In this document: piece by piece, positions 1-52,201 of the stretch
Numbering within the stretch: the stretch's first letter is position 1
Layout of the letters: each line of letters begins with the position of its first letter
DNA from: Leptonemataceae bacterium
GTDB taxonomy: Bacteria > Spirochaetota > Leptospiria > Leptospirales > Leptonemataceae
Assembly (NCBI GenBank): GCA_965227295.1
Contig: OZ245742.1
Coordinates: forward strand, 4,160,001 to 4,224,000
Direction of reading: 5' to 3'
DNA length: 64,000 nucleotides
Made by a program: the position numbers and the translations under genes
The notes under the pieces: generated by a model
What the model was told of the DNA's origin: nothing
Seen by the model: only the letters and a program-made list of their open reading frames with translations
The model's database searches: none

Positions 1-2
1 AC

Positions 3-6391: not shown

Positions 6392-6856
6392 ATGAGCAAT
6401 CCATCCCCCGCAGGTGTACCTAACTGGATTCTGTTTCTGTTCGTCGGATCGCTGATCGTCGGCGGCGCTTACGGTATCTTTAATCATGTGTTTCTCGGCC
6501 CCACGCCGATCAACGCTTACGTGATTCCCACCGTGGCGGAGGTTCCGCCGCGCACGCCCGAAAACATTCAGCTCGGTGAAGAGATTTACGGACGCGCCTG
6601 CGTCGCCTGCCACGGCCAGAACCTCGAAGGCCTGGTGGGCCCGTCGCTTGCGGACGCCGAATGGTGGCACCACCAGAACGAAACGGATATGGGCAAACTC
6701 ATCATGCGCGGCATCGGAGCCGGCCAGTCCGTCTCCGGTCAGATCATGCCCGCGAAGGGCGGCGCGGCGATCAGCGACGCCGACGTCTGGCGCGTGGTGT
6801 ACTTCCTGTCCGAAAAGAACGGAACGATCGAGAAAGATCAGAACGCCGGCGAGTAA
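6392..6856 (+). CDS. ccoP: Short cbb3-type oxidase subunit III (CcoP)-like mono-heme cytochrome c
   Basis: N-terminal PNWILFLF anchor, CVACH, GLVGPSLAD, MPAKG. Confidence 0.7.
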   Translation: MSNPSPAGVPNWILFLFVGSLIVGGAYGIFNHVFLGPTPINAYVIPTVAEVPPRTPENIQLGEEIYGRACVACHGQNLEGLVGPSLADAEWWHHQNETDMGKLIMRGIGAGQSVSGQIMPAKGGAAISDADVWRVVYFLSEKNGTIEKDQNAGE

Positions 6857-6883
6857 GCGGCGAGATTGCCGCAAAAAATCGGG

Positions 6884-6919
6884 GCGTTTTTACCGCAGAG
6901 GCGCGAAGTTCGCGGAGAG
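6884..6919. repeat. Short REP-like intergenic motif GCGTTTT(T)ACCGCAGAGGCGC, copy 1
   Basis: Near-identical motif recurs at 13289-13312; both lie just downstream of a stop codon. Confidence 0.5.
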
Positions 6920-7120
6920 TGGGCGTGGTGGGTGCGCTGCTTCTGCGGTCGCGTTGGGTAAGTTTGATCCAGCTTAAGTTTAGCACAAGGGTGTGACATT
7001 TTGCTGGACGGGCCGTGGTTTTTTTGATATGATTCGCCTGCCCCCGCAGCGCCGCCGCCTGCCGGGATAGTTTCTGTTCTCCCTCCTCCGAAGAAGAGTC
7101 CACCCACAGGGGGTGGGTGA

Positions 7121-7620
7121 GGTGTATTCTCCTCTTCAATTGGTTGGCACTATCAAGAACTGCAGGCAAAAAATGGGATACCTGTCCTCAAGCCCCATGG
7201 CTCTGTTAACTGGGTTTTCGACGACCAGGGCACTGTGATTGTGGATGATTCATCAGTTGCCCTGGGCTGTCATAATCGCCCCGACGCATCTTAAGTTGAT
7301 CGGATTACAGAATCAACACGCTGGGAATTCGCATGGTGTTCGATCAGAATAGGAGCGTAAAAGGAATATGGAGGCGCATGGAAGAGCACATGAAGGAATC
7401 ATCTGCGCTCGTATTTTGCGGCTACTGGTTCCCTGTGGCACACTTGTATTTCGTTTCAGTCCTGCGCACAGTCCTGACTACACACAAACCACGGATCATT
7501 CTGGTTAACCCAGATTCGCTACGAATTTCTGAGCGTCTCGAGGCACGGTTTTCTTTAGAACAAAATCAAATCTTGAAGCATTTCAATCTAAAGCAGTTTG
7601 TCCTCAACCAATTGCCCAGG
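7121..7620 (+). pseudogene. Frameshifted, 5'-truncated SIR2-like domain gene remnant
   Basis: Successive frames give GIPVLKPHGSVNW (from 7175), VIIAPTHLK, then LVFCGYWFP...IILVNPD, in the order seen in SIR2-like proteins; visibly lower GC. Confidence 0.6.
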
Positions 7621-7624
7621 TCAG

Positions 7625-9631
7625 TCAAACCACCTCCACCCCATCCACCCGAAACTGCAACCGACTGCGCCCCGCAAAGTAACTCATCTCCAGCGACCCG
7701 TACAAATCAAACCGCCCGCGCGCATCTTTCTCCAGCGCGTCCGCGATCAACTTGCCCTGCCGCCAGGCCACGCACTCCAGATACACCGGCCCGCCGGTTA
7801 TGCTGAACTTCGCGTGCAGGCCCTGCGTCATGTACTTCACTTTCTGTAAGACGGCGCCGGCCACGCGAAACACCGGCTCCGGGTTCCGCGGGCCGAACGG
7901 TTCCAACAGCTCCAGCTCGCGTAAGAGATCGTAGGACAACTGCGCCGGCCGTACTTCAAGATGGTACTCCCGCGAGACGTTGGCCGGGGGCGGGCTCTTA
8001 ACTTCCTGCGATTGCATCTTAACGAAACCGTCCAGCAATGCCGCCTCGAGTTTCGGGATATTGTCGTACTGGATCGAAAATCCCGCCGCCTCCGGGTGCC
8101 CGCCGAACTGAATGAACAACTCCGCCGCCGTCGACAGCAGATCGAGCACGTTCACCCCACCGAAGCTTCGGGCCGAACCGCGGGCATAGTCGCCGTCGGG
8201 ATTCACGTAGACGACCGGTCGCTCGTAACGTTCGGTGAGCCGCGTGGCCACGATACCGGAAACGCCTGGCTCCAGGTCTTTGTGATAACAGAACACCAGC
8301 GGCCGCTCCACCCGCGCCGGGTCTTCGGCAATGAGTCGCGCGACGACGCCTTCGTTGCGGGCCGTGCGTTTCTTGCGTTCTTCGTTGAGTTTTACGAGTT
8401 CCGTGGCCAGCTTGCTCGCCCGCTCGCCGCGCTCCGCCGTCAATAGATCCAGGGCGAGCCGGGTGTTGCCCATGCGGCCGGCGGCATTCAACGCGGGACC
8501 AATGCTCCAGCCGAGGTCCCGACTCACGATGCGATCCTCCGGCAATCCCAGCGCGCGAATCAACGCGGCGTAACCCGGAATGTACGGACGCCGGCCGTTG
8601 CGAAAGCCGGCCAGGCCGATGCCCAGGCGCACGAGCGCGCGGTTCTCGCCGACCAACGGGACCATGTCCGTCATGATGCCGACGGCCGCCAGGTCGGCAA
8701 TGCGGCCGACGAAGTCGAGCAAGCGCCGCCGGTTCAGGATGATGCGCGTGAGCAGCAGTTTGCCCGCCGCGTGCGGATCATCCATAAAGCGAGCGCGCTC
8801 CCCCGGCCGCGGACAATACGCCGCTTCGTCCTTGAGATTGCACCATTCCCACTGCGGAATCGCCGCCTGGCCCGCGGCAAGATCCGTGAAACGTCCCAGG
8901 AAACAACCGCAGCGATACGCGAGCACGGCCGTCTCATCTTCCTGTTCCGTAAGATAGTAGACCCGTTGCCATTCCCGCGTATGCGCCAGGGCGTAGCCCA
9001 GGAGCAGCTTAAAGACCAGGCCGACCGTGGCGATCTTGCCCTCGTGCTCCAGAGAACCGACGCTCTCCGGATCCCGCATGGGATTCACGAAGGCACAGCG
9101 CTCCGGATCCGGCACGCGGTCGTGCAACTGGTGGTGATCGAGAATGATGACGGCCTTGCCGCGCTTGACCAGGGTCTCCACCTCGGGACCGTGGGAAGAC
9201 CCCATGTCCAGCAGGATGACCACATCGGCCTGACCGTCGCGGATGTCTTCGAACAGCCGGCCGGAGAGACCGTAGTCGTCGCCTTCATCGGAGACGCGCA
9301 GGTCGAGCTTTGGAGGGTCGTGCATTTCTTTCAGGAAATTGCCGAGCAACGCCGTCGACGAAACGCCGTCCACATCGCGGTCGCCCAGTACCAGAATGGA
9401 CTGCCCGTCCTCGATGGCCCGGCCGAGCACGTCCACGGCCTCCTCCAGGCCGGGGATCAACAGCGGGGAATGGAAACCCGGCTCCGGGCTGAAAAAGTCC
9501 TCCGGGTCCTGGCGGGCGGCAGCGTAGTCCGGATGCCGGACGATCTCTCGCAACGTCGGCGGGACGTGTCGGGGAAAATCCGTTCCGGACGGCGGATCGA
9601 TGGAGGGGCTGGACGCCGTAGACAATGACAT
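7625..9631 (-). CDS. recJ: Single-stranded DNA exonuclease RecJ
   Basis: GDRDVDGVSS, LLDMG, LDHH, GPALNAAGRM, GSARS, FGGHPEAAG, LEPFGPRNPEP. Confidence 0.92.
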   Translation of the reverse strand: MSLSTASSPSIDPPSGTDFPRHVPPTLREIVRHPDYAAARQDPEDFFSPEPGFHSPLLIPGLEEAVDVLGRAIEDGQSILVLGDRDVDGVSSTALLGNFLKEMHDPPKLDLRVSDEGDDYGLSGRLFEDIRDGQADVVILLDMGSSHGPEVETLVKRGKAVIILDHHQLHDRVPDPERCAFVNPMRDPESVGSLEHEGKIATVGLVFKLLLGYALAHTREWQRVYYLTEQEDETAVLAYRCGCFLGRFTDLAAGQAAIPQWEWCNLKDEAAYCPRPGERARFMDDPHAAGKLLLTRIILNRRRLLDFVGRIADLAAVGIMTDMVPLVGENRALVRLGIGLAGFRNGRRPYIPGYAALIRALGLPEDRIVSRDLGWSIGPALNAAGRMGNTRLALDLLTAERGERASKLATELVKLNEERKKRTARNEGVVARLIAEDPARVERPLVFCYHKDLEPGVSGIVATRLTERYERPVVYVNPDGDYARGSARSFGGVNVLDLLSTAAELFIQFGGHPEAAGFSIQYDNIPKLEAALLDGFVKMQSQEVKSPPPANVSREYHLEVRPAQLSYDLLRELELLEPFGPRNPEPVFRVAGAVLQKVKYMTQGLHAKFSITGGPVYLECVAWRQGKLIADALEKDARGRFDLYGSLEMSYFAGRSRLQFRVDGVEVV

Positions 9632-9679: not shown

Positions 9680-10048
9680 TCAGCGCCCCGCCGGTCGCCG
9701 AAATTCCTCGGTGAACAGGGACGGCCGCTTTTCGCCGGGAGGAAGGGCATCGCTCACGGGATCGTAGAATCGCGGCGCCCGGGACAATCGCCGGGGAACG
9801 GTCATGTACCGCGTGGAAAGATCGCCGAACTCGCGGTAAAAGAGGCGGTCGACAAACATAAGCAGGCCGAAGAAGCCGTGGTCCCGGACGGCGTGACCGG
9901 CGTAGGCCGCGCACGAAGGATACATGGGACAGCGCGGCCCGTCGATGTGCGTGCCGGTCTCCCGGTGCTGCTCGATGATGACATCCAGGGGCGCGGAAAT
10001 CATACTGGCACAGTTCGCCAGCGTGAGTACCGATATACTGAGTAACAT
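9680..10048 (-). CDS. YidD-like membrane protein insertion efficiency factor domain protein, probable lipoprotein
   Basis: CPMYPSCAAYA...G...DRL...DP motif; start moved to ATG 10048 (MLLSISVLTLANC). Confidence 0.65.
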   Translation of the reverse strand: MLLSISVLTLANCASMISAPLDVIIEQHRETGTHIDGPRCPMYPSCAAYAGHAVRDHGFFGLLMFVDRLFYREFGDLSTRYMTVPRRLSRAPRFYDPVSDALPPGEKRPSLFTEEFRRPAGR

Positions 10049-10099
10049 CCGCCGCACCGACGCAGCCTGCGGACGGATGCAGGATACGCAAGGCTTTTC

Positions 10100-12064
10100 A
10101 TGAGATACTGGAATCAGGAGCGAGTGGATGAGTTCATGCAGAACGTCGCCACCGGTTTTCAGTCGCGGAGCCTGGCCGATGTCGCCGTGGACCTGGGCGT
10201 GGTGCTCGCCGTCGTGATTCTGTACTTCGTGGTCTTTCGCGTGGTGCAAAACCGTTTGCGGCGCTCGCGCGAAGAACGCAGCCGCGACGCCTTTGCCGGC
10301 CAGGCCGTAAAGCTAAAGCTCACGCCGCGCGAGCGGTCCCTGCTCCACGAACTCTCCGAATTCCTGGACCGCCCCGACGAGGAACTGCATCTGCTCTTGA
10401 GCGACCGCGATCGCTTTCGCCGGACGTCGGAACTCCTGCGGGCTACGACCGACGACCCGGAACGTTACGGTCGGGACCTGCTGGCCCTGGGAGTCCGCCT
10501 GGGCTTTCATCGCCGCGACGCCGGCCACATCCTGCGATCCAGCAGCGATCTGCCCGAGGGCACCCTGCTCTTCGGAAACGATGGCGAGCCGCTGCTCCGC
10601 GTCGCCCGGGTCGAGCCCGGTCACATTTCCGCGCGCCTCATCGACGCAAATCGTTTCGAAGAATTTGCACAAGCTTCCGGCGGCGAACTGGAGTTCGTTG
10701 TGAAACGTTCGGAAGGCCTCTATTCCCTGCGCACGACCTGGCTCGGCCGTGATCCGCATCATGAAGATCGCATCATCCTCGAACACCGCCAGGACCATAA
10801 CCTGAAGCGGCGCCAGTTGCGCCGCTACGTACGCCGGGAGCTCGGCGTGCCCGTAGAATGGAACGGAATTCCCGGGCGCACGGTGGACCTCGGCGGCGGC
10901 GGCGCGCGCATCCGGCTGGACCGCAGTGCCGGTGCCGACAAAGCTGACGACGGGCGGCTGAAAATCTTCCTCGACGACGGCCACCGACGACCGGTGAGCC
11001 TGGACTGCGAGGCCCGGGTCGTCGCCGTAACTTCTGATCATATGCACTTAGAGTTCACCCGCATTCGCGAAGCCGATCGCGATCGCATCATCCGGCTCAT
11101 CTTTGGCGACATCCGTCGAGAACGCAACGAACGGAGTCGCGGCGACGGTGTCATCGCCGTGCTGTTGTTCGGCCTCGCGTGTGCGTTCATCGCCGTACCG
11201 TCGCAGTCGGCCCACGGCCAATCGCCGGAAATTCGTCGCGGTCTGAGCGGGGAAGCCCTGGGCGATTACTACTACGACCGCGAAGAGTTCGATCTCGCGC
11301 GCATCGAGTACGAACGCGGCATGCTGCGCGGCGGGGCCCGGGAAAACGAGTATCGGGCGAAGCTCGGCCTGAGCCTCATGCGTGAGCATCGTTTTCGCGA
11401 CTCCCTTCCGATCATGAACGACGGCCGGGACTTCAGTCATCTGTACTTGAGTATGTTCGCCTCGTTTCGCGCGGGCTGGGCCTTCCAGGGTTTGTCGAAG
11501 CAGGCGCTGATCCTGGATTCGAATGCCTTTTCGGAAGAGCAGAAGGACCAGGCGCGACTGCTCGGCGGCACGGTCTACCTTGAAGAGGGCGACTACGAAA
11601 AATCGCGCCGGTACTATACGCAATTGCAACGAGACTCAAACATTGAACTCGTGCGCCTGAAAGCCGGCGAACTGCTGACGGCCCTCGATGAGTACGAGTC
11701 GCTGGATCAGAAATCGCCCTGGCTCGCCGGGACTTTCTCGGCAGTGCTGCCGGGTTCGGGACAAATCTACGCCGGTCATTACGCCGACGGGGCCACCGCG
11801 TTTTTCTTCAACGCCATGTTCCTGGGTTCCGCCGTGGTGATGTACGACCTGGAGAATCGCGCGGGCAGCGGTCACGTCGCCTCGGGCATCTTCGGCGTGG
11901 TGGGCCTCATGTTTTATCTGGCCAACGTCGGTGGTGCCTACCAGACCGCGGTCCGCTATAATGTGTATCAGGAACGCAAGTTTCACGAGGACATTCGGGA
12001 CTCGTTTTTTCATCTGGACTATATCCAGAAAACCAGTGGAGTGTCCTTTCAGACGAACTTTTAG
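10100..12064 (+). CDS. Membrane protein: PilZ-like domain fused to TPR region and C-terminal TM segments
   Basis: RRQLRRYVR and TVDLGGGGARI (PilZ-like motifs), internal hydrophobic segment, TPR-like helices, KSPWLAGTFSAVLPGSGQIYAG. Confidence 0.65.
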   Translation: MRYWNQERVDEFMQNVATGFQSRSLADVAVDLGVVLAVVILYFVVFRVVQNRLRRSREERSRDAFAGQAVKLKLTPRERSLLHELSEFLDRPDEELHLLLSDRDRFRRTSELLRATTDDPERYGRDLLALGVRLGFHRRDAGHILRSSSDLPEGTLLFGNDGEPLLRVARVEPGHISARLIDANRFEEFAQASGGELEFVVKRSEGLYSLRTTWLGRDPHHEDRIILEHRQDHNLKRRQLRRYVRRELGVPVEWNGIPGRTVDLGGGGARIRLDRSAGADKADDGRLKIFLDDGHRRPVSLDCEARVVAVTSDHMHLEFTRIREADRDRIIRLIFGDIRRERNERSRGDGVIAVLLFGLACAFIAVPSQSAHGQSPEIRRGLSGEALGDYYYDREEFDLARIEYERGMLRGGARENEYRAKLGLSLMREHRFRDSLPIMNDGRDFSHLYLSMFASFRAGWAFQGLSKQALILDSNAFSEEQKDQARLLGGTVYLEEGDYEKSRRYYTQLQRDSNIELVRLKAGELLTALDEYESLDQKSPWLAGTFSAVLPGSGQIYAGHYADGATAFFFNAMFLGSAVVMYDLENRAGSGHVASGIFGVVGLMFYLANVGGAYQTAVRYNVYQERKFHEDIRDSFFHLDYIQKTSGVSFQTNF

Positions 12065-28505: not shown

Positions 28506-30263
28506 TTAGTGCAGATCGCCGAAGAAGTGCGTCGTGCCCTCACCGAGCAATTCCCCGTCCGCCAGGGACGGAGACAGGTCCAGAGAAGACGCAAGATCGG
28601 CGTCATAAAACAGGTAGAGCGAGCCTTGCTGGGCGCCGGCGCCGGCATCACGCCGGGGGGCGGATAGAAAGAGTTCCGGATGGCGATTGCCGTTCCAGTC
28701 GCCCAGGCGCAGGTCGCTTCCGAACGAATGAGCGCTGCTTTCGCCGGTGGCAATGACCGACTCCGACTCCGGGACCGACGCCGCCCAGGAACTACGCCCG
28801 GAAAAGACATACACCCGTCCCTGGAGGGAATTGAAGCCCTGGGCAAGCAGAATCAGTTCCGGCAATCCGTCGGCGTTCAGATCGGCGACCCGCGCCCCGG
28901 CAGTGTTGGCCGCCAGGACCTCGGTATCGTTCGCCGTATCCACGGTGGAAGTGAAGCCGCCCGCGTTTCCGAAGAAGATCCGATACGAGGCATTTCCCTG
29001 AAATAAGAGATCCGTGTAGCCGTCCGCATTCAGGTCGGCCGCGCGCGGGTGCGCGCCGAACTCGTTGCCGGGGGACGTGCCCGTAAAGATCACGTCGGCG
29101 ATGGCCGCAGAACCGCTCGCCAGACCGCCCGGGCTTCCGTAGTGCACGTAGCTACGCCCGGTAAAGACGCCCGCGGGATAGCCCAGGGCGTTGGCGATGA
29201 CGTCGGCGTAACCGTCCGCGTTGACGTCCGCCACGAAGAGGTCGTCGGCCAGTTCCTCGAGCCCCGCCTCTCCCTGCACGGTCGTATCCGCACTGCTGAT
29301 ATCACCATCCGCCAGTGGAGCGGCGGAACCGTGAAAAACGAACCACCCACCCCGATCACTCAGATAACCCGAAGCACCGACGACGATGTCGGCGTAGCCG
29401 TCGCCGTTGACGTCGCCGGTGTACAGCAACTGGCCGAGCGCGGTACTCGCCGTGCCGCGCAAGGTCGCGTCGGCATCCGCCGGGCTCGTCGCGGAGATAC
29501 CGTTCGCGCTGCCGTAGTAAACGTAAATAGCCCCACTGCCCGGGGCGGGCACGGCGGCCCCGGATGCACCCACAAACAAATCCGCGTAGCCGTCGCCGTT
29601 CAGATCACCGGTATTGAAGCCGGACCCGAGACTTTCATTCGTCGCGGTACCGGTGATGATGACGTCGGCCGCGGCCGGCGAGGTGGATTCGATACGTGAA
29701 CCGTCACTGCGTCCGTAATAGAGATAGAGCCGTCCCGCATTGCTCACGCCGGAGTCGTAGGTCGTGGCAGCAACGAGCAACTCCGCGAAACCGTCTCCGT
29801 TTATATCCCGATTGCGACCGATGGTAATCGTCGTCTCGACGCTGCTTGAGGGAGCGGCATAGATCGAGTTCACCCGCACGGTGACGCGGTGTTCCGTTCC
29901 TTCTCCGTAGCCCGCCGTCGTCGGCAGACGATAGCGCCACGTCGTCGTTCCTTCGGCCGGTTGAAATTCACCGTCGTTCAATGCAACCTCTACACCCAGG
30001 ACCGGCGTGGATGCCTCCGCCGTTCCGATCAGGTACGCCGATTCCACGATGCCGGTGGTCTGCCGATTCGTGAACACGACCGCGGCTTCCGGCCGGCCCC
30101 AGAAGAATAGCGCCGCCGGATTGCAGGCAACGTCGGCCGTTGCGCAGGGAGGCTCCGCCATATCGCCGGCGCAGTGACCCGAAAAGCCGATCGCGCCGAG
30201 AACGAGGAGGAGCAGGGTTAATAGTTTATTGTTAGAAGTTAGGGAACGAAGTTGTCTCTGCAT
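28506..30263 (-). CDS. FG-GAP repeat (integrin-alpha-like beta-propeller) surface lipoprotein with Ig-like domain
   Basis: Signal ending in SGHC; repeated DxNGDGYAD motifs with GA..G..Y.Y.G segments. Confidence 0.85.
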   Translation of the reverse strand: MQRQLRSLTSNNKLLTLLLLVLGAIGFSGHCAGDMAEPPCATADVACNPAALFFWGRPEAAVVFTNRQTTGIVESAYLIGTAEASTPVLGVEVALNDGEFQPAEGTTTWRYRLPTTAGYGEGTEHRVTVRVNSIYAAPSSSVETTITIGRNRDINGDGFAELLVAATTYDSGVSNAGRLYLYYGRSDGSRIESTSPAAADVIITGTATNESLGSGFNTGDLNGDGYADLFVGASGAAVPAPGSGAIYVYYGSANGISATSPADADATLRGTASTALGQLLYTGDVNGDGYADIVVGASGYLSDRGGWFVFHGSAAPLADGDISSADTTVQGEAGLEELADDLFVADVNADGYADVIANALGYPAGVFTGRSYVHYGSPGGLASGSAAIADVIFTGTSPGNEFGAHPRAADLNADGYTDLLFQGNASYRIFFGNAGGFTSTVDTANDTEVLAANTAGARVADLNADGLPELILLAQGFNSLQGRVYVFSGRSSWAASVPESESVIATGESSAHSFGSDLRLGDWNGNRHPELFLSAPRRDAGAGAQQGSLYLFYDADLASSLDLSPSLADGELLGEGTTHFFGDLH

Positions 30264-31252: not shown

Positions 31253-32824
31253 TCATTCGCGGATGGAGAAACCGAATTGCTCGTTGTTCTCGGCACCCTG
31301 GATGATCAGGTCGTTGACCGTCCGACTGACCGTACCGCTCAGACGGGTGTCCGTGTTTTCGTAGAGCACGGTGGCCATCCCGAAATCCGTGCCGGGGCCG
31401 TCCGCGGTGGGGCTGCTGAAGACGATCTCGGTCAATGTCCCATCCCCGTTGAGATCCTGGCGGAGCAACGGGGCCCCGAAGCCCTCGTTTGCCTCGGCCC
31501 CCTGCACGCGCACGAAGCCCTGGGTCACCAGAAGCGTGGAACCGGAAGTGAGCGCCGCACCGGTGAAGGCGTAGGCCTCGCCCCGCCCGGTCCCCCCGCC
31601 CGCGGACTGGGCCGCCGTGATCCAGAGGTCCGGGTAATCGTCGCCGTTGATGTCCTCGCGCACGGCCAGGAGGTCACCGCTGCGATCGTTGTCGGCCTCA
31701 CCCCGGATGGTCACGTCGGCGTTCGTGCGAAACTTTGTTCCGCCGAACGGCGGAAAGTAGATGTGAGTTTCGCCGCGCTGGGTTCCTCCGCCGCCGGCCT
31801 GTACGGAACTGGCGGCGATTTCGATGAGGCCGTCGTTGTTCAGGTCCCCGTGGGCGATGAATGACGGAAAGGCCTCGTTGGAGACCGTGCCGCGGTAGAC
31901 GGCAAAGGCCTGGTCCGCTGTGATCAGGCTGCCGTTCGTGAACGGCCCGGCATACAGCCGCAGGGCGCCGGCATCGGATTGGCCGTTGGCCGTGTCGTCC
32001 TCACGGTTCGCCGCGACAATGAGATCGTTGATGCCGTCGTTGGTGATGTCGGCCACGTTCTGGCGAAACCCGAAGAAACTACCGGACACCGCTCCCTCGA
32101 ACTGTATGTTTGAGTCGGCCTCGGTGAGACTGCCGGTGCTGATGTTGCTGCTGCCGAGATAGACGTAGATCATTCCCGAGTTGGTTACGTTGGGTCCGTT
32201 GGCGCCGAAGGCTCCGACGCTCAGGTCCGCCACCGTATCGTTGTTCAGGTCGCCGATGGTCATGGAGTTGCCCAGGCTCGCGTTGTCGGTGGTGTGGGTG
32301 AGGATCATGTCCGCGTCCGAGGCCAGAAGCGTTGCCGGCCAGGAGCTCCGCCCGAAGAAGACATACACAAAGCCGCGACTCGTGCCGGCGCCGTTGGCCG
32401 TAAAGGCGCTGAAGGCGAGATCGTCCAGGCCGTCCGCGTTGATGTCTCCCACGGCCTGGATGATCCCGAACTGCCCGCTGTTCTCGACACCCGTGATTTT
32501 AACGTCGGCGGTGTCGTTCTGAATGCTTCCCGTAGCGCTGAGGGGACCGAAGTAGATGTAGATCCGCCCGCGATCGGTACCGCCGCCATCGTAACCAAAT
32601 CCACCGATCATCAGGTCTTCGTTGCCGTCGTTGTTGAAATCCGCCTTGATGGTCGGCGGCGTTTCGGGCGGGGTATAAAAGAGATAGGCGAGCCAGGCAG
32701 TACCGCAATAGGGATCCCGGGCATCGCATTCTGTTTCCACGGTCAGGCAGGCCGGCATCGTCGACAGGACAGCGCCGGCCAGGATCGCGAGAAATGTTTG
32801 GTGAATGGTATGTCCCCGATTCAT
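31253..32824 (-). CDS. FG-GAP repeat surface lipoprotein
   Basis: Signal ending in MPAC; repeated D(L/I)N(N/G)DG motifs; start moved to ATG 32824. Confidence 0.85.
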   Translation of the reverse strand: MNRGHTIHQTFLAILAGAVLSTMPACLTVETECDARDPYCGTAWLAYLFYTPPETPPTIKADFNNDGNEDLMIGGFGYDGGGTDRGRIYIYFGPLSATGSIQNDTADVKITGVENSGQFGIIQAVGDINADGLDDLAFSAFTANGAGTSRGFVYVFFGRSSWPATLLASDADMILTHTTDNASLGNSMTIGDLNNDTVADLSVGAFGANGPNVTNSGMIYVYLGSSNISTGSLTEADSNIQFEGAVSGSFFGFRQNVADITNDGINDLIVAANREDDTANGQSDAGALRLYAGPFTNGSLITADQAFAVYRGTVSNEAFPSFIAHGDLNNDGLIEIAASSVQAGGGGTQRGETHIYFPPFGGTKFRTNADVTIRGEADNDRSGDLLAVREDINGDDYPDLWITAAQSAGGGTGRGEAYAFTGAALTSGSTLLVTQGFVRVQGAEANEGFGAPLLRQDLNGDGTLTEIVFSSPTADGPGTDFGMATVLYENTDTRLSGTVSRTVNDLIIQGAENNEQFGFSIRE

Positions 32825-32959
32825 GGGACATGGTTTATCCGATCGCGTTTCTTGCCAGAAAAAACGAGGTTTGCCTCGATGCACCTGCGCCCTGCCCGGC
32901 TACTGAAACTCCGTCGCCCAAATGGTTGACCCGATCCCGCCGTCACGGCTTGTTTCCTC

Positions 32960-34640: not shown

Positions 34641-35246
34641 TTACTTCGGCGACTTGCGGTGAATGACCTCGGGGCCGATCTCATCGTATTCGTCCGGCGT
34701 GATCATCGTTTCGGCGAACGTGGAATCGGCCGCCATGCCGGACGTCATGGACCAACTCGTAAAGTGCGGGCTCATGAAGAATCCGGCGACACCGAAGGTT
34801 TCGAAGAACAACTGCGTGGTTGCTTCGCGGGCTTCGTCCGTACTATTCGCGGCCTCGTTTAGAACCACGGCGACCTCGTCCGGTTCTACCTGAAGTTTGC
34901 TCGATAGAATGTGTTGCACGAGCGCTTCGAAGGCGTTCCGGTCGCTGATCGTATTACCACCGGGTTCCAGGGCGTAAGTAATTTTTAATGTAGCTTTGCG
35001 TTCGAGGGCTTCGTTGCCGTAATAGGTTTTTGTACCGCCCATGCCGATCATCGGTCCCGGACTCGCGCTTGTGCCGATCACGGCCGGCATGCTGAACCGC
35101 GGCGCGGATTCGCCGGCCAGACCGGCTTCGATGTTGCCGTCTTTGAGATGCAGGACGACCGTTTGTTCGGGACCGCCGGCGGACAGAGGCAGCGCGAAAA
35201 CGGCGAGCACAATGCAGAGTAGTAATCGATACGACAGGTAATTCAT
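34641..35246 (-). CDS. Secreted truncated eukaryotic-actin-like protein (subdomains 1+2 only)
   Basis: Signal peptide, then AGLAGESAPR, MIGMG, GNEA, REATTQLFFETF, STF...ITPDEYDEIGPEVIHRK, matching actin N- and C-terminal segments. Confidence 0.85.
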   Translation of the reverse strand: MNYLSYRLLLCIVLAVFALPLSAGGPEQTVVLHLKDGNIEAGLAGESAPRFSMPAVIGTSASPGPMIGMGGTKTYYGNEALERKATLKITYALEPGGNTISDRNAFEALVQHILSSKLQVEPDEVAVVLNEAANSTDEAREATTQLFFETFGVAGFFMSPHFTSWSMTSGMAADSTFAETMITPDEYDEIGPEVIHRKSPK

Positions 35247-35303
35247 GTAAAAAATCTCCAGGCAATCTATGCAAAATTTAGACGATGATCCGCCCGATTT
35301 TGT

Positions 35304-36884
35304 TCACCCGGCCCATTCCTCGCGCTCTTGTTCCAGGGGAACAAACTCCGGTTTCAGGAAATAGGCTGAAGTAGTGTCTTCCATTAACAGGCGTAGAAAT
35401 TCACCTACGGACCGTGCAATGAACACACGGTCCTCCGGAGTCCGTTCCAGTACAACTTCGAAACCGTAATCATCTACGGCGATCCAGGCGCCGTCCTGCA
35501 TTTTGCCGAAGGCGATGCCTCGCATATCCGAATAGTCGACACCACCGTCCGTACGATGCTCCACCGTCGCCAGCGGTTCCAGATCCTGCACCGGCAAAAA
35601 CTCGAACTGCCATTGCGGGAAACGAATGCCGTCACATTTATGATACAACGCATTCAGCTCCGCGGGAACGTCGCCCAGTAAAAACGAAACGGTACCGTGC
35701 AACGCTTCGGACACCGCGCCGGCCGGCTTTGGCGGTCGCGGGCTGCCGTACAGCATCAGCTCATCGATGAATTGTAAGGCCGTGCGTACTTCGCGGACGG
35801 CCCATCCGGGCTTCGGCTTCAGGGCGAGGCCTTCCTGATGCACACCCGCGACTCCGCCCACGAATTCCATGCGTTTTGATACGAGGCGGTCCCTGTACTG
35901 AAACGGAACGAAGGAGAGGCCGGAAGGCAAAGAATCAGCGCTCAATCCCGGTCCCAGATCGTAACTTGCATCTTCCCAGTCTTCGTCCGTAACGCCCAGG
36001 ATCGGATTGGGAATCGTAAACCGTCCGGTAACATAGTTGCGCACATACGGAAAGAGATGCGCGATCCAACCGTTCATCAACTCTTCGCCGTAAGCATCCC
36101 TGAGTTTGTAGATGCGTCGCCAGTGGTCCAGGTCAATGTCACCGGAACGCGCGCGCACAAACTGATCGCACACCGGAACCAGATACTCCAGCCACCATGC
36201 ACAGTCATAATCGTGCAGGTACTCCACTTTGGCTCGCAAACGTTGCCAGTCGGCCGGAGTACCTTCCAGTGTGATTTCCGGAATACCGCAGACACAAACA
36301 GAGCGATAGTTGTAAAACGGCTGAAAGACATCCATCATGACCAGGCGACTGACCAAAAGCTCCAGCGGGCCGGAGGTACTGAAGTCGGCCTCCAGCCATT
36401 GAAAAGACTTCGGAGCGCGCGCCTCGATTTCCTCTGCAAACATGGGAAACATAAGCTGCCAGGGATTTTCCGGAGCGCCGTCGACAAAACCTTCGACTTC
36501 GATCGTAATGTCTTTCGTGCCTTCATGTGAGACCAGGCGATCTCGCAGATGCTCCGCATGATTGTGCACGTGATTTGCCAGGCCCTGGGCGATCGTAATC
36601 CAGATCGCATCCGGCGTGAGAATGAGCGGGCGATGCTCGCTGAAGGCAAGATGCACGGCACCGACTAATGGATGACCGGGCGCTCGCACCACGTTATCGG
36701 TATAACTGTAACATGCCTCCAGGGGAGCCGCTTCCTCTTCCGGATAGCTGTACGGCCCGTGATCCACACTGTCGATGGTGCCGGCCATGTAGTCGTAGAT
36801 CTTGCACTCGGGCAGCGGCTCTCGCGCCGGTTCAACATCGTCCACCGGAAACGTGATGTATTGTTCGTTCTTGCGTATGTTCAT
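35304..36884 (-). CDS. DUF4419 domain protein with possible C-terminal SMI1/KNR4-like domain
   Basis: AFSEHRPLILTPDAIWITIAQG, DFSTS, CGIPEITLEGTPADW, GWIAHLFP; C-terminal VPAELNALY...DG and IARSVGEFL. Confidence 0.75.
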   Translation of the reverse strand: MNIRKNEQYITFPVDDVEPAREPLPECKIYDYMAGTIDSVDHGPYSYPEEEAAPLEACYSYTDNVVRAPGHPLVGAVHLAFSEHRPLILTPDAIWITIAQGLANHVHNHAEHLRDRLVSHEGTKDITIEVEGFVDGAPENPWQLMFPMFAEEIEARAPKSFQWLEADFSTSGPLELLVSRLVMMDVFQPFYNYRSVCVCGIPEITLEGTPADWQRLRAKVEYLHDYDCAWWLEYLVPVCDQFVRARSGDIDLDHWRRIYKLRDAYGEELMNGWIAHLFPYVRNYVTGRFTIPNPILGVTDEDWEDASYDLGPGLSADSLPSGLSFVPFQYRDRLVSKRMEFVGGVAGVHQEGLALKPKPGWAVREVRTALQFIDELMLYGSPRPPKPAGAVSEALHGTVSFLLGDVPAELNALYHKCDGIRFPQWQFEFLPVQDLEPLATVEHRTDGGVDYSDMRGIAFGKMQDGAWIAVDDYGFEVVLERTPEDRVFIARSVGEFLRLLMEDTTSAYFLKPEFVPLEQEREEWAG

Positions 36885-37046: not shown

Positions 37047-38813
37047 TCACAACGCCGACTCCACCGCCCGAATTCCCTGCTTCGCTTCGCCTTCCGCGTC
37101 ATGCAACGCATCTTTTAGAAGATCGTCCAGCGTGGCTTCAATGACGCCGAACAACGGCGCGTGCGGATTGTAACCGACTTCGTCCCAGACTTTGCAGAGT
37201 TTCGCGAAGGGATCCGCCTGCATGACGATGCTGTCGTTCGAAAAAACCATCACGTCTTTGCCGGCGTCGTAATGATTCCAGGCGGCGGCATCGGCGACGG
37301 GCCGGCCGGATTTCGCAAAGCTCGTCCAGTAGCCGCCCATGATGTCCGACATGCGATTCTCGGAAACGTTAAAGCCGCCGTCGACGGCGCCCGTGCTGTC
37401 GTCGGAGTTATGAAAGACGTACGGCAACTCCGAGCCGTGGCAGACCGCGTCCGCGCACTGCGGATACTGCGGCCAGGGATTGAACGCGGAGATGTAGTCG
37501 AACGTGTAGACAAAGTTACGCGCAGCCTGCCCCACTGCCGCTGAACGGTTGCCGCACTTAAACAGATAGTCCGTGGCGAGCCGCGCGAGGGTCGCGCTGT
37601 TGTCGCCTTTCACCGGCGGATACTGCTGCACAATGAGTTTGCGTTCGTTTTGATCGAAGAAAAGATTCAACACGAACTGATACTCGGCCTGCGTGATCGC
37701 TCCGATGACCTTCGTCGCCATGGCGATGAACAACACCGCCTCGTTCGCGTTCGAGCCCATCAACATGGGCACACGGAACTGAGCCTTGGAGATCGGCGGC
37801 GGGTTGTCCGTGATTACCCTGTGGTCGATGACCGGAGCCCAGATGACCGGCCCGGCAATGCCTTCGGTCAGCACCGGCAGGAGACCCACGAAATTCGTCT
37901 CGCCGCTAACAATTTCTTTTGTGGACTTAGAACGCAGGCACTCCGCGCGTGCGGCTCCCGGAATCGGACAGAGGTTCACCAGGCTGAAGGCCCGGCCGAG
38001 TTTATCGGCCTGCTGCGCATCTTTGTAGGCCAGCGCGATGGGATTGCTTTCCATGATTGCGAAACGAAACAGGCCCGCGCTACCCGGCGCGGTCGAGGCA
38101 TGCAACCCCACCGACATGGCCCCGGCGCTCTGGCCGAAGATGGTAACCTTGTCCGGACTGCCGCCGAAGGCACCGATGTTCCGTTGCACCCAGCGAAGCG
38201 CCAGTTGTTGATCCAGGAAACCGTAATTCCCCAATAGGCCGGCGTCCTTCACAAAGAGAAAACCCGAAGCACCGAGGCGATAATTCAGGTTCACGATGAT
38301 GATGTCGTGATGCGAGGCGAGGTAGGCGCCGTCGTACAGGGTCGTCTGCGCCGAGCCGGCCATGAAAAATCCGCCGTAAATGAAAACCATCACCGGCGTA
38401 TGCGGCTGCACATGCTCCGGCGTCCACACGTTGACGATGAGACAATCCTCGTCCATGGTCTTCGGATCGTAAGGTGCCTGCGGACAAATTTTACCCGGTC
38501 CCGTCGCATCGAAGACGCCTTCCCAGACGGCCTTCGGTTCCGGCGGCGCGAACCGCACCGGCTTTTCGGCGAAGGGAATGCCCGTGTACGCGTAGGCCTT
38601 GCGATCGCCGGAGTCCACGAGTTGCCCCTGGATCTTTCCGGCCGGCGCGGGAATGATGCCCTGATGCGCCGTCGTCTTCAGCGTCGGCAGATCGGCAACG
38701 GGAGCGGCGGCGTCATGCCCGGCAGGTTTGCACGCGAGAAGCAGCACGCTGCTCGTAAGCAGAGTGGAGGCTAACAGTAGCGTAACATTCGTTCGGAATG
38801 CTTTAATTTGCAT
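37047..38813 (-). CDS. Type-B carboxylesterase/lipase lipoprotein
   Basis: LLAC lipobox, EDCL, YGGFF, NYRLG, FGQSAG catalytic Ser, HGSEL. Confidence 0.92.
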   Translation of the reverse strand: MQIKAFRTNVTLLLASTLLTSSVLLLACKPAGHDAAAPVADLPTLKTTAHQGIIPAPAGKIQGQLVDSGDRKAYAYTGIPFAEKPVRFAPPEPKAVWEGVFDATGPGKICPQAPYDPKTMDEDCLIVNVWTPEHVQPHTPVMVFIYGGFFMAGSAQTTLYDGAYLASHHDIIIVNLNYRLGASGFLFVKDAGLLGNYGFLDQQLALRWVQRNIGAFGGSPDKVTIFGQSAGAMSVGLHASTAPGSAGLFRFAIMESNPIALAYKDAQQADKLGRAFSLVNLCPIPGAARAECLRSKSTKEIVSGETNFVGLLPVLTEGIAGPVIWAPVIDHRVITDNPPPISKAQFRVPMLMGSNANEAVLFIAMATKVIGAITQAEYQFVLNLFFDQNERKLIVQQYPPVKGDNSATLARLATDYLFKCGNRSAAVGQAARNFVYTFDYISAFNPWPQYPQCADAVCHGSELPYVFHNSDDSTGAVDGGFNVSENRMSDIMGGYWTSFAKSGRPVADAAAWNHYDAGKDVMVFSNDSIVMQADPFAKLCKVWDEVGYNPHAPLFGVIEATLDDLLKDALHDAEGEAKQGIRAVESAL

Positions 38814-45733: not shown

Positions 45734-45871
45734 GGATCCACGACACGTCCCTGAGTGCCACAGTCACCCTCTCGACCTCTCATCCTCCCGCGAAAATCTT
45801 CCCCCGGTGTCCTCGGTGTCTCGGAGGTTCAATTGACACTCAGGCCGCTCCCGAACTCCCTGTCTCAGTCC

Positions 45872-47443
45872 ATGCCCGTCCAGTTCTACAACAGCCTTGC
45901 CGACGAGAAGCAACCGTTTGAACCCGCCGACCCCGCGCGGGTGAAGATCTATAGCTGCGGGCCCACCGTGTACAACTACAATCACCTGGGCAACTTCCGC
46001 GCGTACGTCTTCGTCGATTTACTGCGCCGCTATCTCCTGTTCCGTGGTTACGGCCTCGAACAGACCATGAACATCACCGACGTCGAGGACAAGATCATCA
46101 AAGGCGCGCTGGACGCGGGCCGCTCCATCGACGAATTCACAAAGCCGTACATCGACGCCTTCTTAGAAGACCTGGCGTTCCTGAACATCCAGGACCTGGA
46201 ACACCGGCCGCGGGCCACACGCAGCATCGACGCCATGATCGACATCATGCAACGCCTGGACGAGAACGGCCACGTATACACCCGCGACGGCAACGTGTAC
46301 TTTCGATTAAAAACGTTCACCGATTACGGGCGCCTGTCAAAAATCGAAGCCGAACAGTTGCAGACGGCGGCAGACGGTCGCTTCGAAGCGGACGAATACA
46401 CCAAAGAAGACGTCCGCGACTTCGCGCTCTGGAAGGCGCCGCAGCTCGACAACGAACCCGCCTGGGATTCGCCCTTCGGCCCGGGCCGACCGGGCTGGCA
46501 CTTAGAATGCTCCGCCATGATCCGCGACGTCTACGGCCAGGCCGGCGTCGACATACACACCGGCGGCATCGATCTCTTGTTCCCGCATCACGAAAACGAA
46601 CTGGCGCAAAGCGCCTGCGCCTACCCCGGCGACAACTTCGTTCGCTACTGGATGCACAACGAACATCTGCTCGTCGACGGCAAGAAGATGTCCAAGTCCG
46701 AGCGGAACTACTTTCTCCTGCGCGACTTCAGCGACAACGAACGACTGCAGGCCCTGGTCAACGACGGCATTGCCCCGGACTTCCTGCTGAAGCTCAAAGA
46801 ACGCGGGCGCCTCGGTGTTTGCCTGCGGCATTTGCTGATCGGCACGCACTATCGCCAGAAGCTCAACTTCACGTTCACCGGCATCCAGGCCGCGGACGCC
46901 GCCCTGGGGCGTATTCAAAATATGATCGCCCGCCTCAAGGAAGAGAGCGGCTGGTCCGCCGCCGACATCCGCCGGGCCGGCGAGGACCACGCCGCGAAAG
47001 AACGCGAGCGCGGCCCCGGCGCCGAACCGCTGTTTCCGAACGAGGACTCACCGACGTCGGCGGCGGAGCAGGCCCACGCCGCCTTCACGGCGGCCCTGGA
47101 CGACGACCTGAACGTTGCGCGAGCCTTCGCCGCCCTCTTCGATCTCGCCCGCGAAAGCACGCGCAACTTAGAAGGCCTGGGCACGGCCTTCGCGGAGCGC
47201 GCCCTCATCTTCCTGCACCAGGCCGACGCCGTCCTCGGCATCCTGGATTTTTCCGAGCAGGCCGACGCGGCCCCCGGCATCGACGCGGTGGATGCGGATC
47301 GCATTGAACGGCTCATTCAGGAACGCAAAGACGCGCGCGCGAACAAGGACTTCGCCCTGGCCGACCGCATCCGCGACGAATTGAAAGATGAAGGCATCAT
47401 TCTGAAAGACAGCCCGGAAGGAACCACCTGGGAAGTGGAGTAG
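45872..47443 (+). CDS. cysS: Cysteine--tRNA ligase
   Basis: CGPTVY..HLGN, DFALWK, GRPGWHLECS, FPHHENE, KMSKS, ADRIRDEL; start moved to ATG 45872. Confidence 0.95.
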   Translation: MPVQFYNSLADEKQPFEPADPARVKIYSCGPTVYNYNHLGNFRAYVFVDLLRRYLLFRGYGLEQTMNITDVEDKIIKGALDAGRSIDEFTKPYIDAFLEDLAFLNIQDLEHRPRATRSIDAMIDIMQRLDENGHVYTRDGNVYFRLKTFTDYGRLSKIEAEQLQTAADGRFEADEYTKEDVRDFALWKAPQLDNEPAWDSPFGPGRPGWHLECSAMIRDVYGQAGVDIHTGGIDLLFPHHENELAQSACAYPGDNFVRYWMHNEHLLVDGKKMSKSERNYFLLRDFSDNERLQALVNDGIAPDFLLKLKERGRLGVCLRHLLIGTHYRQKLNFTFTGIQAADAALGRIQNMIARLKEESGWSAADIRRAGEDHAAKERERGPGAEPLFPNEDSPTSAAEQAHAAFTAALDDDLNVARAFAALFDLARESTRNLEGLGTAFAERALIFLHQADAVLGILDFSEQADAAPGIDAVDADRIERLIQERKDARANKDFALADRIRDELKDEGIILKDSPEGTTWEVE

Positions 47444-50650: not shown

Positions 50651-51665
50651 TACCGGCCCCGACGAGATGAACGTATTCTTTCCCGGCGCGTGTAAAGACG
50701 ACGCCGCGCATTGGGCTATCCTCTTCCCCGATGAAATAAAATGTGCCAATTCTTCCATATTCATCTTTAATCTGTTCCTCCGTCCATTCCGCGCCAAACG
50801 CTTCAAACTTCTTTGGAGCATCAGAGAGCAAATCTTTGATGGCCTCTATGGCATGGCGCGACAGTTGAAAGGTTTCGCTGAATTTTTCGCGCTGGCCGTC
50901 GTATTCGACTCCCTCACCGGCGTTAACAATAATGGCTTTCCCGTTTCGGTTGGCCACGCGGACAGAACCTGAAACGACCTGGAGAAACTCCGAATTGTGA
51001 TAGACGCCTAATCTTAATTCGGTTCCAATTAGTGTATAATCGGCCCTGTCCGATGCGATTACGTAGTGTTTCGCCTCCCCGGCCAGGGGGCGCGAAAAAA
51101 CAGTGATATTGCCGTAAGAAACGTAGAGGCGAGCCGTGTTTTTTTTACAGTCCACTCCCGGGAAGCTCACCAGGGAAGGCGGCAAGAAAACCATTCTCGC
51201 GTTGCCACATTGTACGATTACCTGGCCGTGAAATTCATTCGGGAGGACCAGAATATCACCAGCCTTCAGATCACCCGGTGTCGCTCCCGGTATTCGAAGT
51301 TGCTCCTCGTTCCGCTTCAGATAAGCGCCGTTTTCAACTGAAGTTATCAATGCGGCACCGAACGAATTCGGCTGGACGAGTAATCCCCAAAACAATGCAA
51401 AGGCGCCAGCCACAAACAGAAGACTCGCTGCGACCTTCAAATAGAACGGCGTGAATGACTGTTGCACTCCTCCAATCTTGTTGAAGTCTTCGATGTCAGC
51501 GTCAAGACCGGGATACGTCGGAGCGTCGTCCGGTCGTTTCTTTCTTTCTTCAATCTTTTGTAAGATTCGGTCCAGTCGTTCTTTAGAAACGGGTGTATCG
51601 TTGCGTAAGGACTCGAATGTCTTGCGCCATTCTCTGGGGATTCTATCATCATCGTATGAACTCAT
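50607..51665 (-). CDS. FecR-domain anti-sigma factor
   Basis: Single TM (VAASLLFVAG), LKAGDIL, IGTEL, QVVSGSVRV; coupled to ECF sigma gene. Confidence 0.75.
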   Translation of the reverse strand: MSSYDDDRIPREWRKTFESLRNDTPVSKERLDRILQKIEERKKRPDDAPTYPGLDADIEDFNKIGGVQQSFTPFYLKVAASLLFVAGAFALFWGLLVQPNSFGAALITSVENGAYLKRNEEQLRIPGATPGDLKAGDILVLPNEFHGQVIVQCGNARMVFLPPSLVSFPGVDCKKNTARLYVSYGNITVFSRPLAGEAKHYVIASDRADYTLIGTELRLGVYHNSEFLQVVSGSVRVANRNGKAIIVNAGEGVEYDGQREKFSETFQLSRHAIEAIKDLLSDAPKKFEAFGAEWTEEQIKDEYGRIGTFYFIGEEDSPMRGVVFTRAGKEYVHLVGAGIVPINGRPYHIDFD

Positions 51666-52201
51666 AATGGCTTGATCCCCCTTTTTTTGAATTCCGCTAT
51701 AAGGCTTCTGTTTGCACGCCTCAAAAGTCTACTGGCCCAGCTTTCATGAACGCCCATAACCTGCGCGATCTCAGAGAGGTTAAGGTCACATTCATGACGA
51801 AGCCTCGCGCATTGCGCTTGTTCTGGCGGTAGACGTAAGAGTACGTCCTGATAAATACTTTTGATCGGCGAAGTACTGCTTTCGCGCAATCGCGAAAGGT
51901 GCTCGTTTACTGTACGCTTGACACGGTCGGCTTCTAACTCAAATTCTTTCTCCCGACCGGAGCCCTGCCGCTTCGCATGGTCTTTGCGCAAACCCTCCGC
52001 CACACGATAAAGCAAGGCTCGTCGGATGTACGCGAGCTTGCCCGCCTGGATTTTTCGCCACAGCAATATGAAGGTATCCTGCGCCAGGTCATCACTTAAC
52101 TCAGGATGGCCGGTTTTTTGATCGAGGTACCGGACAAGCTTCTCTTGCTCCCTTTTGTAAATCCGGGTGAGTTCCCGTTCCAATTCCTCGTATTCGCTCA
52201 T
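51662..52201 (-). CDS. ECF RNA polymerase sigma factor
   Basis: DDLAQDTFILLW, LYRVA, LPPEQ, LSEIAQVMG. Confidence 0.85.
   Translation of the reverse strand: MSEYEELERELTRIYKREQEKLVRYLDQKTGHPELSDDLAQDTFILLWRKIQAGKLAYIRRALLYRVAEGLRKDHAKRQGSGREKEFELEADRVKRTVNEHLSRLRESSTSPIKSIYQDVLLRLPPEQAQCARLRHECDLNLSEIAQVMGVHESWASRLLRRANRSLIAEFKKRGIKPL

Follow-up and report, generated by a model that had tools for sequence, protein, structure and literature searches.

What is a fragment of eukaryote-type actin doing behind a secretion signal in a spirochaete? Actin, a highly conserved and intensively studied protein, has four subdomains, binds ATP, polymerises in the cytoplasm and depends on a dedicated chaperonin for its folding. 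We analysed 64,000 nt of a Leptonemataceae bacterium genome (contig OZ245742.1, positions 4,160,001 to 4,224,000; hereafter the window), in which one short gene, here called half-actin, encodes a signal-like peptide followed by the two ends of actin. A sequence-only reading had taken it for a horizontally acquired actin reshaped into an exported, nucleotide-free mimic or decoy that acts on eukaryotic actin-binding proteins or nucleases. Half-actin instead proves to be the tip of a clade of signal-bearing bacterial actins that shrink stepwise. The reading we favour, at a rough probability of 45%, is that half-actin is an exported, nucleotide-free module made only of actin's outer domain (subdomains 1 and 2), carrying the plug of actin's polymerisation contact without the socket and serving as a cap or blocker of an actin-type cleft.

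Half-actin corresponds to the two ends of actin with the middle removed. Against Pfam-A it matches a single family, Actin (PF00022; E 8.4e-25), at 87.6 bits over a gathering score of 27 and in two stretches: residues 27–159 cover positions 4–129 of the 410-position profile, and the other stretch covers the profile's C-terminus. A phmmer search of PDB chain sequences returned 147 distinct matches, the best 60 of which are all named actin. In the best of them, 8trm_A (E 2.5e-26), half-actin 28–162 aligns to actin 7–139 and 162–198 to actin 338–374. Some 198 actin residues (140–337) are absent as one block, which by the textbook limits are subdomains 3 and 4; actin residue numbers and subdomain limits throughout are anchored to this alignment. 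The jump to the C-terminus that the sequence-only reading had drawn by eye is thus reproduced, and the 201-residue open reading frame (ORF) and all of its quoted motifs lie where that reading put them: FALPLSA/GG at 17–25 (slash at the predicted cut), HLKDG at 33–37, AGLAGESAPR at 41–50, PGPMIGMGG at 63–71, YYGNEA at 75–80, LQVEPDE at 118–124, REATTQLFFETF at 140–151 and STFAETMITPDEYDEIGPEVIHRK at 175–198.

Structure prediction places half-actin in the same family. From a 19-sequence family alignment (A2), AlphaFold2 (AF2) produced a confident model with a mean predicted local distance difference test score (pLDDT) of 91.7 and a predicted template-modelling score (pTM) of 0.81. The pLDDT exceeds 90 over the homologue of actin ~6–136 except in the loop that binds DNase I (D-loop); it is lowest in block 61–70, which holds that loop (64), and in block 21–30, where the signal joins the first strand (74). 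A Foldseek search of the PDB with this model gave actin-holding entries for all of the best 50 matches (E ~6e-15, ~131 columns, root-mean-square deviation 1.4–3.7 Å, 27–34% identity). The aligned part is a contiguous N-terminal piece; the C-terminal helices lie beyond a 200-residue gap, which a sequential aligner has no means to span. In the protein atlas all matching clusters were of eukaryotic actin (scores 0.86 and 0.97), none being bacterial, and a homology search at lengths of 810–2310 aa gave eukaryotic gene models of fused or tandem actins, which played no part in the analysis. The affinity, as had been claimed, is to eukaryotic-type actin, and it is not to MreB, ParM or MamK: membership of MamK or BeeR is rejected by scores of 17.5 and 24 bits against cut-offs of 400 and 530, and even at E up to 10 Pfam matched neither MreB_Mbl nor any related model. 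Half-actin is a derivative of eukaryote-type actin.

What half-actin lacks includes the whole nucleotide site. Actin holds its nucleotide with a DNGSG loop in subdomain 1, while subdomains 3 and 4 contribute another phosphate loop and the pocket for adenine. In half-actin the first loop reads HLKDG, as the sequence-only reading had noted, and the second falls inside the deleted block. At 201 residues, with ~131 columns aligning to actin chains of ~370, the protein does not have actin's four-subdomain, two-lobe fold. Because the phosphate loop and the whole inner domain are lacking, we expect that half-actin cannot bind nucleotide or polymerise as actin does, in agreement with the earlier description.

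Half-actin is one member of a conserved bacterial family. A word-indexed search found four homologues of the same outline (197–206 aa) at 70, 64, 56 and 47% identity, and P0006 (199 aa), P0007 and P0013 (both 201 aa) and the partial sequences P0008 and P0014 came from an exhaustive profile search across 1.84 billion representatives. A scan of genome contigs, which used two half-form-biased peptide patterns (at least 599 stretches), under-samples longer forms and did not match the window's own genome, located half forms at no fewer than five loci on contigs of 7,048 to 847,447 bp. These lie in metagenome-assembled genomes (MAGs) of a Spirochaetales bacterium (L001), a 'bacterium' (L002), a Leptospiraceae member (L003) and a Spirochaetaceae member (L004), and in a Leptospiraceae MAG fragment at a contig end (L005). 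Besides the window's own, at least 12 half-form sequences are known (9 complete, 3 partial), five of them on spirochaete or unclassified MAG contigs. All 13 of 13 half forms (10 complete, 3 partial) share the same deletion boundary and junction, and junction residues M158, P160, H161 and F162 are invariant in the half-form alignment (A1). The carriers are Leptospirales-type spirochaetes, known from large-genome environmental-type MAGs.

The loci share the half-actin gene and little else. The flanks of L001–L004 hold ordinary bacterial genes, such as those for FapA, SpoIIE, STAS, OmpA and adenylate cyclase. Pfam searches of 33 flanking ORFs from L001–L004 and L006, the last carrying a longer relative described below, found no neighbour family common to the loci, and no secretion-system or host-interaction genes are conserved in the flanks beside half forms. 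Apart from half-actin, no window ORF of at least 150 aa matches any locus.

Selection maintains the half-form gene. Over the mature part of five coding sequences (Nei–Gojobori method), the proportion of nonsynonymous differences (pN, 0.26–0.33) is lower than that of synonymous differences (pS, 0.59–0.83) in 10 of 10 pairs. The ratio of the corresponding distances (dN/dS) is 0.29, 0.18 and 0.08 in the three pairs with finite dS, the other seven pairs being saturated. The gene is under purifying selection, not in decay; with this and the conserved homologues, the grounds on which the sequence-only reading was to be dismissed do not apply. We consider it barely credible that half-actin is an artefact or relic, whether through contamination with eukaryotic DNA, chimeric assembly, an actin gene model with skipped exons or the decay of a transferred actin into a pseudogene. 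Exon-skipped eukaryotic models with a similar outline do exist, namely P0027 (201 aa), P0079 (189 aa) and P0020 (257 aa), all conventional actins with internal gaps. They keep DNGSG, however, carry no signal peptide and are near-identical to conventional actin, whereas the window gene is 27–34% identical to actins; an exon-skipping origin is rejected on the loop and the signal. Half-actin also has a bacterial ribosome-binding site and lies on a 5,938,550-bp contig between genes for a GMC oxidoreductase and a DUF4419 protein and among housekeeping genes. Its architecture recurs in the dozen or more further sequences, with bacterial neighbours confirmed at four of the five MAG loci, and pN stays below pS in every pair. 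The three exon-skipped models are, in their own right, a trap for architecture-only searches.

Export is predicted for the whole family. Our signal calls use a heuristic of our own, which combines Kyte–Doolittle hydrophobicity (KD) with small residues at −3 and −1. By this heuristic the half-actin N-terminus has one basic residue, an 11-residue hydrophobic core at 9–19 (mean KD 3.36) and an LSA/GG site at residue 23, giving the tripartite n/h/c anatomy of a Sec/signal peptidase I-type signal: an n-region charge of +1, small residues at −3 and −1, and no lipobox cysteine. The 23-aa signal proposed earlier is thus predicted here too. All 15 family rows whose N-terminus is complete show this anatomy (basic n-region, 11-residue core, mean KD 2.25–3.36), and most of them have a small-x-small site a few residues ahead of the first actin strand. 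Cleavage-type sites in the family are LSA/GG, LHA/AE, LQA/DA, IFA/DD, IQA/NE, LSA/NT, IYA/GD, TFA/QD, LNA/QE and LQA/EE; the site is less clear in P0009, and P0018 has a linker of ~60 residues after its hydrophobic segment. A lipoprotein reading was rejected, as the family has no conserved cysteine after the hydrophobic region and none at the lipobox position. Cysteines are also missing from the actin part, with none in 11 of 11 half forms and a single one in 4 of 4 three-quarter forms (the intermediate length class described next). The full-length signal forms P0018, P0026 and P0019 have none, one and five, and 31 of the 32 other actin-like matches have at least four. The absence of cysteines from half forms is suggestive, being in keeping with export.

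Half-actin ends a graded series of signal-bearing actins. At one extreme, P0019 (397 aa), P0026 (402 aa) and P0018 (462 aa) have a signal-like N-terminus and cover the whole or nearly whole Pfam Actin profile. Three-quarter forms, comprising P0009 and P0010 (each 322 aa; P0010 is an ORF in L006, a Leptospiraceae MAG), the partial P0023 and a second gene of L004, cover the profile from position 3 to ~175 plus a later stretch. The deletions are nested in alignment A2: forms of ~322 aa lack the block from the IYEGY strand to the helix at actin ~274, which by the same limits is subdomain 4, and half forms lack everything from the strand after actin ~135 up to actin ~337. The edges of either deletion coincide with boundaries between subdomains. 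An AF2 model of the L004 three-quarter form (pLDDT ~90 in the mature part, 80.6 overall and below 50 in the first 52 residues) matches actin in Foldseek with template-modelling (TM) scores of 0.70–0.77 by query length and 0.62–0.69 by actin length, and is accordingly predicted to fold as actin minus about a quarter. DNGSG is lost in 15 of 15 Sec-signal rows that cover the phosphate loop. Since even the full-length P0018 and P0019 are among them, loss of the nucleotide site preceded the domain losses.

Two fragments sit beside this series. P0017 (171 aa) has a signal-like peptide and subdomains 1 and 2 without the actin C-terminal helices, ending ...KDSKGYVSKFCIEIKP; truncation of the gene, a frameshift or a variant even shorter than the half form could each explain it. 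At a contig end in L007, an Aureispira sp. (Bacteroidota) MAG, positions 2..160 (+) encode an actin-type C-terminus 74% identical to that of P0010, the remainder being cut off by the contig end.

Phylogeny gathers the signal-bearing actins into one clade. The IQ-TREE tree was built on 52 rows, with 174 columns retained for being filled in 85% of rows or more, leaving out 11 of 63 rows (P0021, P0047, P0056 and P0113, which have junk or partial N-termini, and seven near-identical conventional actins); its root rests on actin-like representatives. All 19 Sec-signal rows form one clade (bootstrap 98, Shimodaira–Hasegawa-like approximate likelihood ratio test (SH-aLRT) 81; further supports in this order). 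Within it P0019 splits off first, followed by P0018 plus P0026 (98/86). The three-quarter forms, P0017 and the half forms make a 16-row clade (99/91), and the 11 half rows are one clade (100/98), sister to P0009 plus the L004 three-quarter form (90/83). The half clade (99) and a set of 18 rows were also recovered by a preliminary, faster tree on 375 columns, which left P0019 among other actins without resolution. Half-actin groups inside this clade of signal-bearing reduced bacterial actins, which we define here, and shares the half-form boundary.

The half form is thus a single, well-supported, conserved lineage at the tip of a 19-member Sec-signal actin clade that runs from full length (~400 aa) through ~322 aa to half. 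In the simplest history the signal would be gained once, after which subdomain 4 and then subdomain 3 would each be lost once. Of the earlier claim of a horizontally acquired, reshaped actin, the derivation from eukaryote-type actin therefore stands, and reshaping within this genome alone is too simple, because the gene's family occurs across several MAGs of spirochaetes and sits within a clade of full-length and three-quarter signal forms.

Half forms keep one side of actin's polymerisation contact and lose the other. The core of the D-loop (P65, M66, G68 and M69) is at least 90% conserved among them and aligns in the PDB alignment to actin M44–M47 (rabbit numbering), its two methionines to M44 and M47. 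The facing cleft is lost: subdomain 3 is absent and the cleft-facing residues of the C-terminal helix are polar. Three-quarter and full forms keep an actin-like cleft-lining helix (W-GGSIL-LSTF-MW), along with LxLYA and YEGY, whereas in half forms this helix is polar or variable (SW...S.MA..STF.ET). Because the cleft helix is actin-like in the former and degenerate in the latter, we read the longer forms as having plug and socket and the half form as having the plug only. The best conserved segment of half forms is residues 182–199, ITxDEYDExGPxxIHRKS, with a mean top-residue fraction of 0.82, and the exposed acidic residues of the C-terminal helix are invariant.

These features suggest how half-actin might act. 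After Sec export and signal cleavage, a mature protein of ~178 aa would fold by itself outside the cytoplasm, which fits with its zero cysteines and missing nucleotide site. It would then act purely by protein binding, through the D-loop and the face of subdomain 1. Having kept the two methionines and the glycines of the D-loop and lost its own cleft, it could dock its plug on an actin-type barbed face and could not itself be extended. A plug without a socket could occupy the barbed face without further addition, hence a cap or blocker. The most likely owner of the cleft would be an exported longer paralogue of the same clade, favoured because it shares the compartment and because longer forms keep plug and socket; extracellular eukaryotic actin is the second candidate. 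In L004 a three-quarter form at 6682..7806 (−) and a half form at 9926..10531 (+) lie 2 kb apart on opposite strands, which makes a bacterial partner at least as likely as a eukaryotic one. The drift of half-form D-loops, further from the eukaryotic consensus than that of the longer forms, also counts for an exported paralogue. Between the two L004 genes lie a 109-aa ORF and a gene for a calcineurin-like phosphoesterase.

The same conserved positions bear on a doubtful alternative, in which the fold now serves a different end, as a structural or adaptor protein of the periplasm or surface. Whatever partner it had would then be unrelated to actin contacts, for example a component of the envelope or the periplasmic flagellum, and the motifs would be kept for folding only. 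Predicted export, the lack of a conserved neighbour or of any eukaryote-interaction context at the loci, and the fact that many of the conserved residues (R140, E141, T144, F148, E149, F156–M158) belong to helices and strands of the core are all consistent with such a role. But folding alone does not explain why the core of the D-loop, which is flexible and lies at the surface (pLDDT 64), shows conservation of at least 90%, nor why exposed acidic residues of the C-terminal helix are invariant as well.

Extracellular DNase I offers another potential partner. A secreted decoy could titrate extracellular actin partners (DNase I, plasma gelsolin or other subdomain-1 binders) and thereby shield DNA outside cells or interfere with a eukaryotic host, grazer or prey organism. 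The topology fits, DNase I being an extracellular protein. Conservation of the D-loop core and of Y75 (aligned to actin Y53), a nearly invariant acidic DEYDE face at the C-terminus and the retention of actin-specific surface residues are also in line with this version of the earlier proposal, and DNase I is described as binding the actin D-loop (PMC11390976). We nevertheless hold a decoy to be unlikely. The flanks of the D-loop core and the equivalent of 61–64 vary, with an indel among half forms, and the cleft on which most binders of subdomain 1 rely is one shared with subdomain 3, a part that half-actin lacks. The carriers are environmental-type MAGs without conserved host-interaction genes nearby, and Sec export does not reach the eukaryotic cytosol. 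Nor would an ultra-conserved eukaryotic target be expected to let half-form D-loops drift beyond those of the longer paralogues.

Several observations count against an exported plug-only module that caps an actin-type cleft. The half-form D-loop is off the eukaryotic consensus, with proline where actin has V43 and with different flanks, so docking on a canonical cleft is not assured. The signal call being heuristic, the N-terminus may be an uncleaved membrane (signal) anchor. No longer actin paralogue occurs in the 64-kb window, which has no second actin-like gene of any kind, or in L001–L003 (~20 kb each), and a half form and a longer paralogue stand together in one of the five full-size half-form loci. 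Gene context gives no functional hint, as no neighbour family is conserved across loci. Finally, the tree bootstrap is not fully settled (correlation 0.982), and the three-quarter forms appear as a grade where an approximately unbiased (AU) test does not reject a single clade (p 0.39), so the exact order of losses given above is tentative.

A bolder extension of the capping module is quite improbable in our judgement. Leptospirales-type spirochaetes and, convergently, at least one bacterium exporting by twin-arginine translocation (Tat) would run an extracytoplasmic, nucleotide-free, actin-derived assembly, in which full and three-quarter forms chain head to tail, in the periplasm or at the surface, and the half form terminates or regulates the chain. 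If true, no earlier cytoskeleton-like system of the actin family would be known beyond the cytoplasmic membrane, and the assembly would also provide a naturally chaperonin-independent minimal actin domain.

Half-actin resembles eukaryotic actin in what it retains and departs from it in what it has lost. Relative to eukaryotic actin (PF00022; 8trm_A, 1atn_A), subdomains 1 and 2 and the C-terminal helices are homologous and superposable, and half-actin retains the methionines of the D-loop, Y53, the REK-TQ-FE-F helix and DEYDE-GP-IVHRK. It differs in lacking subdomains 3 and 4, the phosphate loops, the nucleotide site and the hydrophobic cleft, in having a signal-like peptide and no cysteines, and in its length of 201 aa instead of ~375. 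The best NCBIfam match is syringactin (NF040575, a 286-position model), to which half-actin scores 33 bits against a cut-off of 300 over model positions 244–285, its C-terminal 42 residues. The longer relatives reach 63–115 bits, still below 300, with P0010 covering up to model 39–284. Membership was rejected for all of them on these scores, and our search found no papers on syringactin. MreB, ParM, MamK and BeeR are cytoplasmic ATP-dependent polymers with both lobes present, and share with half-actin the superfamily fold of the N-terminal lobe.

Eukaryote-type actins in bacteria have precedents. Published accounts report that Haliangium ochraceum BARP and the 'Ca. Uab amorphum' actin group with eukaryotic actins and not with MreB or crenactin (PMC6906331), and that ActM of Microcystis aeruginosa, a eukaryote-type actin, forms an intracellular shell together with profilin (PMC3254629). 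Compared by description and not in our tree, ActM, BARP and the Uab actin appear in those accounts as intracellular, and none as exported or domain-reduced (PMC6906331, PMC3254629). The family here differs in being predicted to be exported, in lacking the nucleotide loop and in being domain-reduced. P0095 (336 aa; Pfam Actin E 4.6e-76) is like the half-actin clade in looking exported, in having no subdomain 4 and in its degenerate loop, DYAGG. Unlike that clade, it has a twin-arginine-type signal, SRREFL (MPQRSRREFLALAAG...), and it falls outside the 19 Sec-signal rows; it therefore looks independent, and exported reduced actin may have arisen twice. Outside subscription-only papers, to which the search did not extend, we found no literature on exported, periplasmic, secreted or truncated bacterial actins. 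Half-actin would thus be a horizontally acquired eukaryote-type actin in bacteria, in which the export signal, the missing nucleotide site and the step-by-step removal of the inner domain are the new elements.

The family bears on how far actin can be pared down. Bacteria appear to have given a eukaryote-type actin a secretion signal, dropped its nucleotide site, then subdomain 4 and later subdomain 3, and kept the remainder under purifying selection. This suggests that the actin outer domain can exist as an independent, evolvable fold. Half-actin would be a natural minimal actin module, which could probably be made in bacteria to study interactions of the D-loop and subdomain 1, and the graded natural deletion series could help to assign parts of actin to the contacts they serve. 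The family may also point to contacts derived from actin that are made outside the cytoplasm, or to bacteria interfering with DNase I or eukaryotic actin.

Table 1. Positions of half-actin, its parts and selected other genes in the window (position 1 is the first letter of the 64,000-nt window)
Feature	Position	Strand	Basis
Half-actin ORF, 201 aa plus stop, ATG start	34641..35246	−	ORF listing; Pfam Actin E 8.4e-25; PDB actins E 2.5e-26
Shine–Dalgarno-like GGAG, 9 nt ahead of the ATG	35256..35259	−	Read from the sequence
Signal-like peptide, residues 1–23 (MNYLSYRLLLCIVLAVFALPLSA), predicted cleavage LSA/GG	35178..35246	−	Heuristic
Residues 27–159, homologue of actin ~6–136 (N-terminal part of subdomain 1, and subdomain 2)	34770..35168	−	Pfam, PDB alignment, AF2, Foldseek
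Degenerate phosphate loop 1, HLKDG in place of actin DNGSG	35136..35150	−	Alignments
D-loop equivalent, residues 58–72 (GTSASPGPMIGMGGT), core GPMIGM	35031..35075	−	Family conservation and PDB alignment
Junction M158-S-P-H-F162, strand after actin ~135 joined directly to actin ~337	34761..34775	−	Alignment A2
Residues 162–198, homologue of actin C-terminus 338–374 (last helices of subdomain 1), end ...DEYDEIGPEVIHRK	34653..34763	−	Second HMMER stretch
FG-GAP (integrin-alpha-type) repeat protein	28506..30263	−	
FG-GAP (integrin-alpha-type) repeat protein	31253..32884	−	
DUF4419 protein	35304..36884	−	
Type-B carboxylesterase	37047..38813	−	COesterase, E 5e-109
Cysteinyl-tRNA synthetase (CysRS), longest ORF 562 aa from GTG	45755..47443	+	
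Extracytoplasmic function (ECF) sigma factor	51662..52201	−	NCBIfam

Half-actin lies among housekeeping genes. The window has 59.3% G+C and no N, and nothing pointed to a mobile-element origin: there was no tRNA, no Rfam family, no PADLOC match and no tblastn match in plasmids or phages. The composition of the half-actin gene is ordinary: its G+C is 57.5%, and its third-position G+C (GC3) is 0.70, with values of 0.64–0.81 in six other window genes. Genes around it encode RecJ, MutY, a MutS-family protein, exopolyphosphatase, AcpS, DapA, DapB, PdxA, CysRS and RlmB. The adjoining genes are that of the GMC oxidoreductase, convergent and 7 nt away, and that of the DUF4419 protein, 57 nt upstream on the same strand, with which half-actin is possibly co-transcribed. 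No consensus promoter was found on the half-actin strand, and a promoter and terminator scan did no better than on shuffles. The FG-GAP, DUF4419 and carboxylesterase genes give the neighbourhood a eukaryote-flavoured look; none of them recurs beside homologues of half-actin.

Two further genes in the window merit brief mention. The ECF sigma factor has NCBIfam matches that include a Rhodopirellula/Verrucomicrobium family model at E 5e-11, below the cut-off. The window's CysRS is closest to Leptospiraceae/Leptospirales MAG proteins (up to 58% among named ones), and is 54% identical to that of Leptonema illini and 44–47% to those of Leptospira species, which places the organism among Leptospirales-type spirochaetes but not within Leptospira. 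The same protein is 536 aa long in the collection, and its true start probably lies 26 codons downstream of the GTG.

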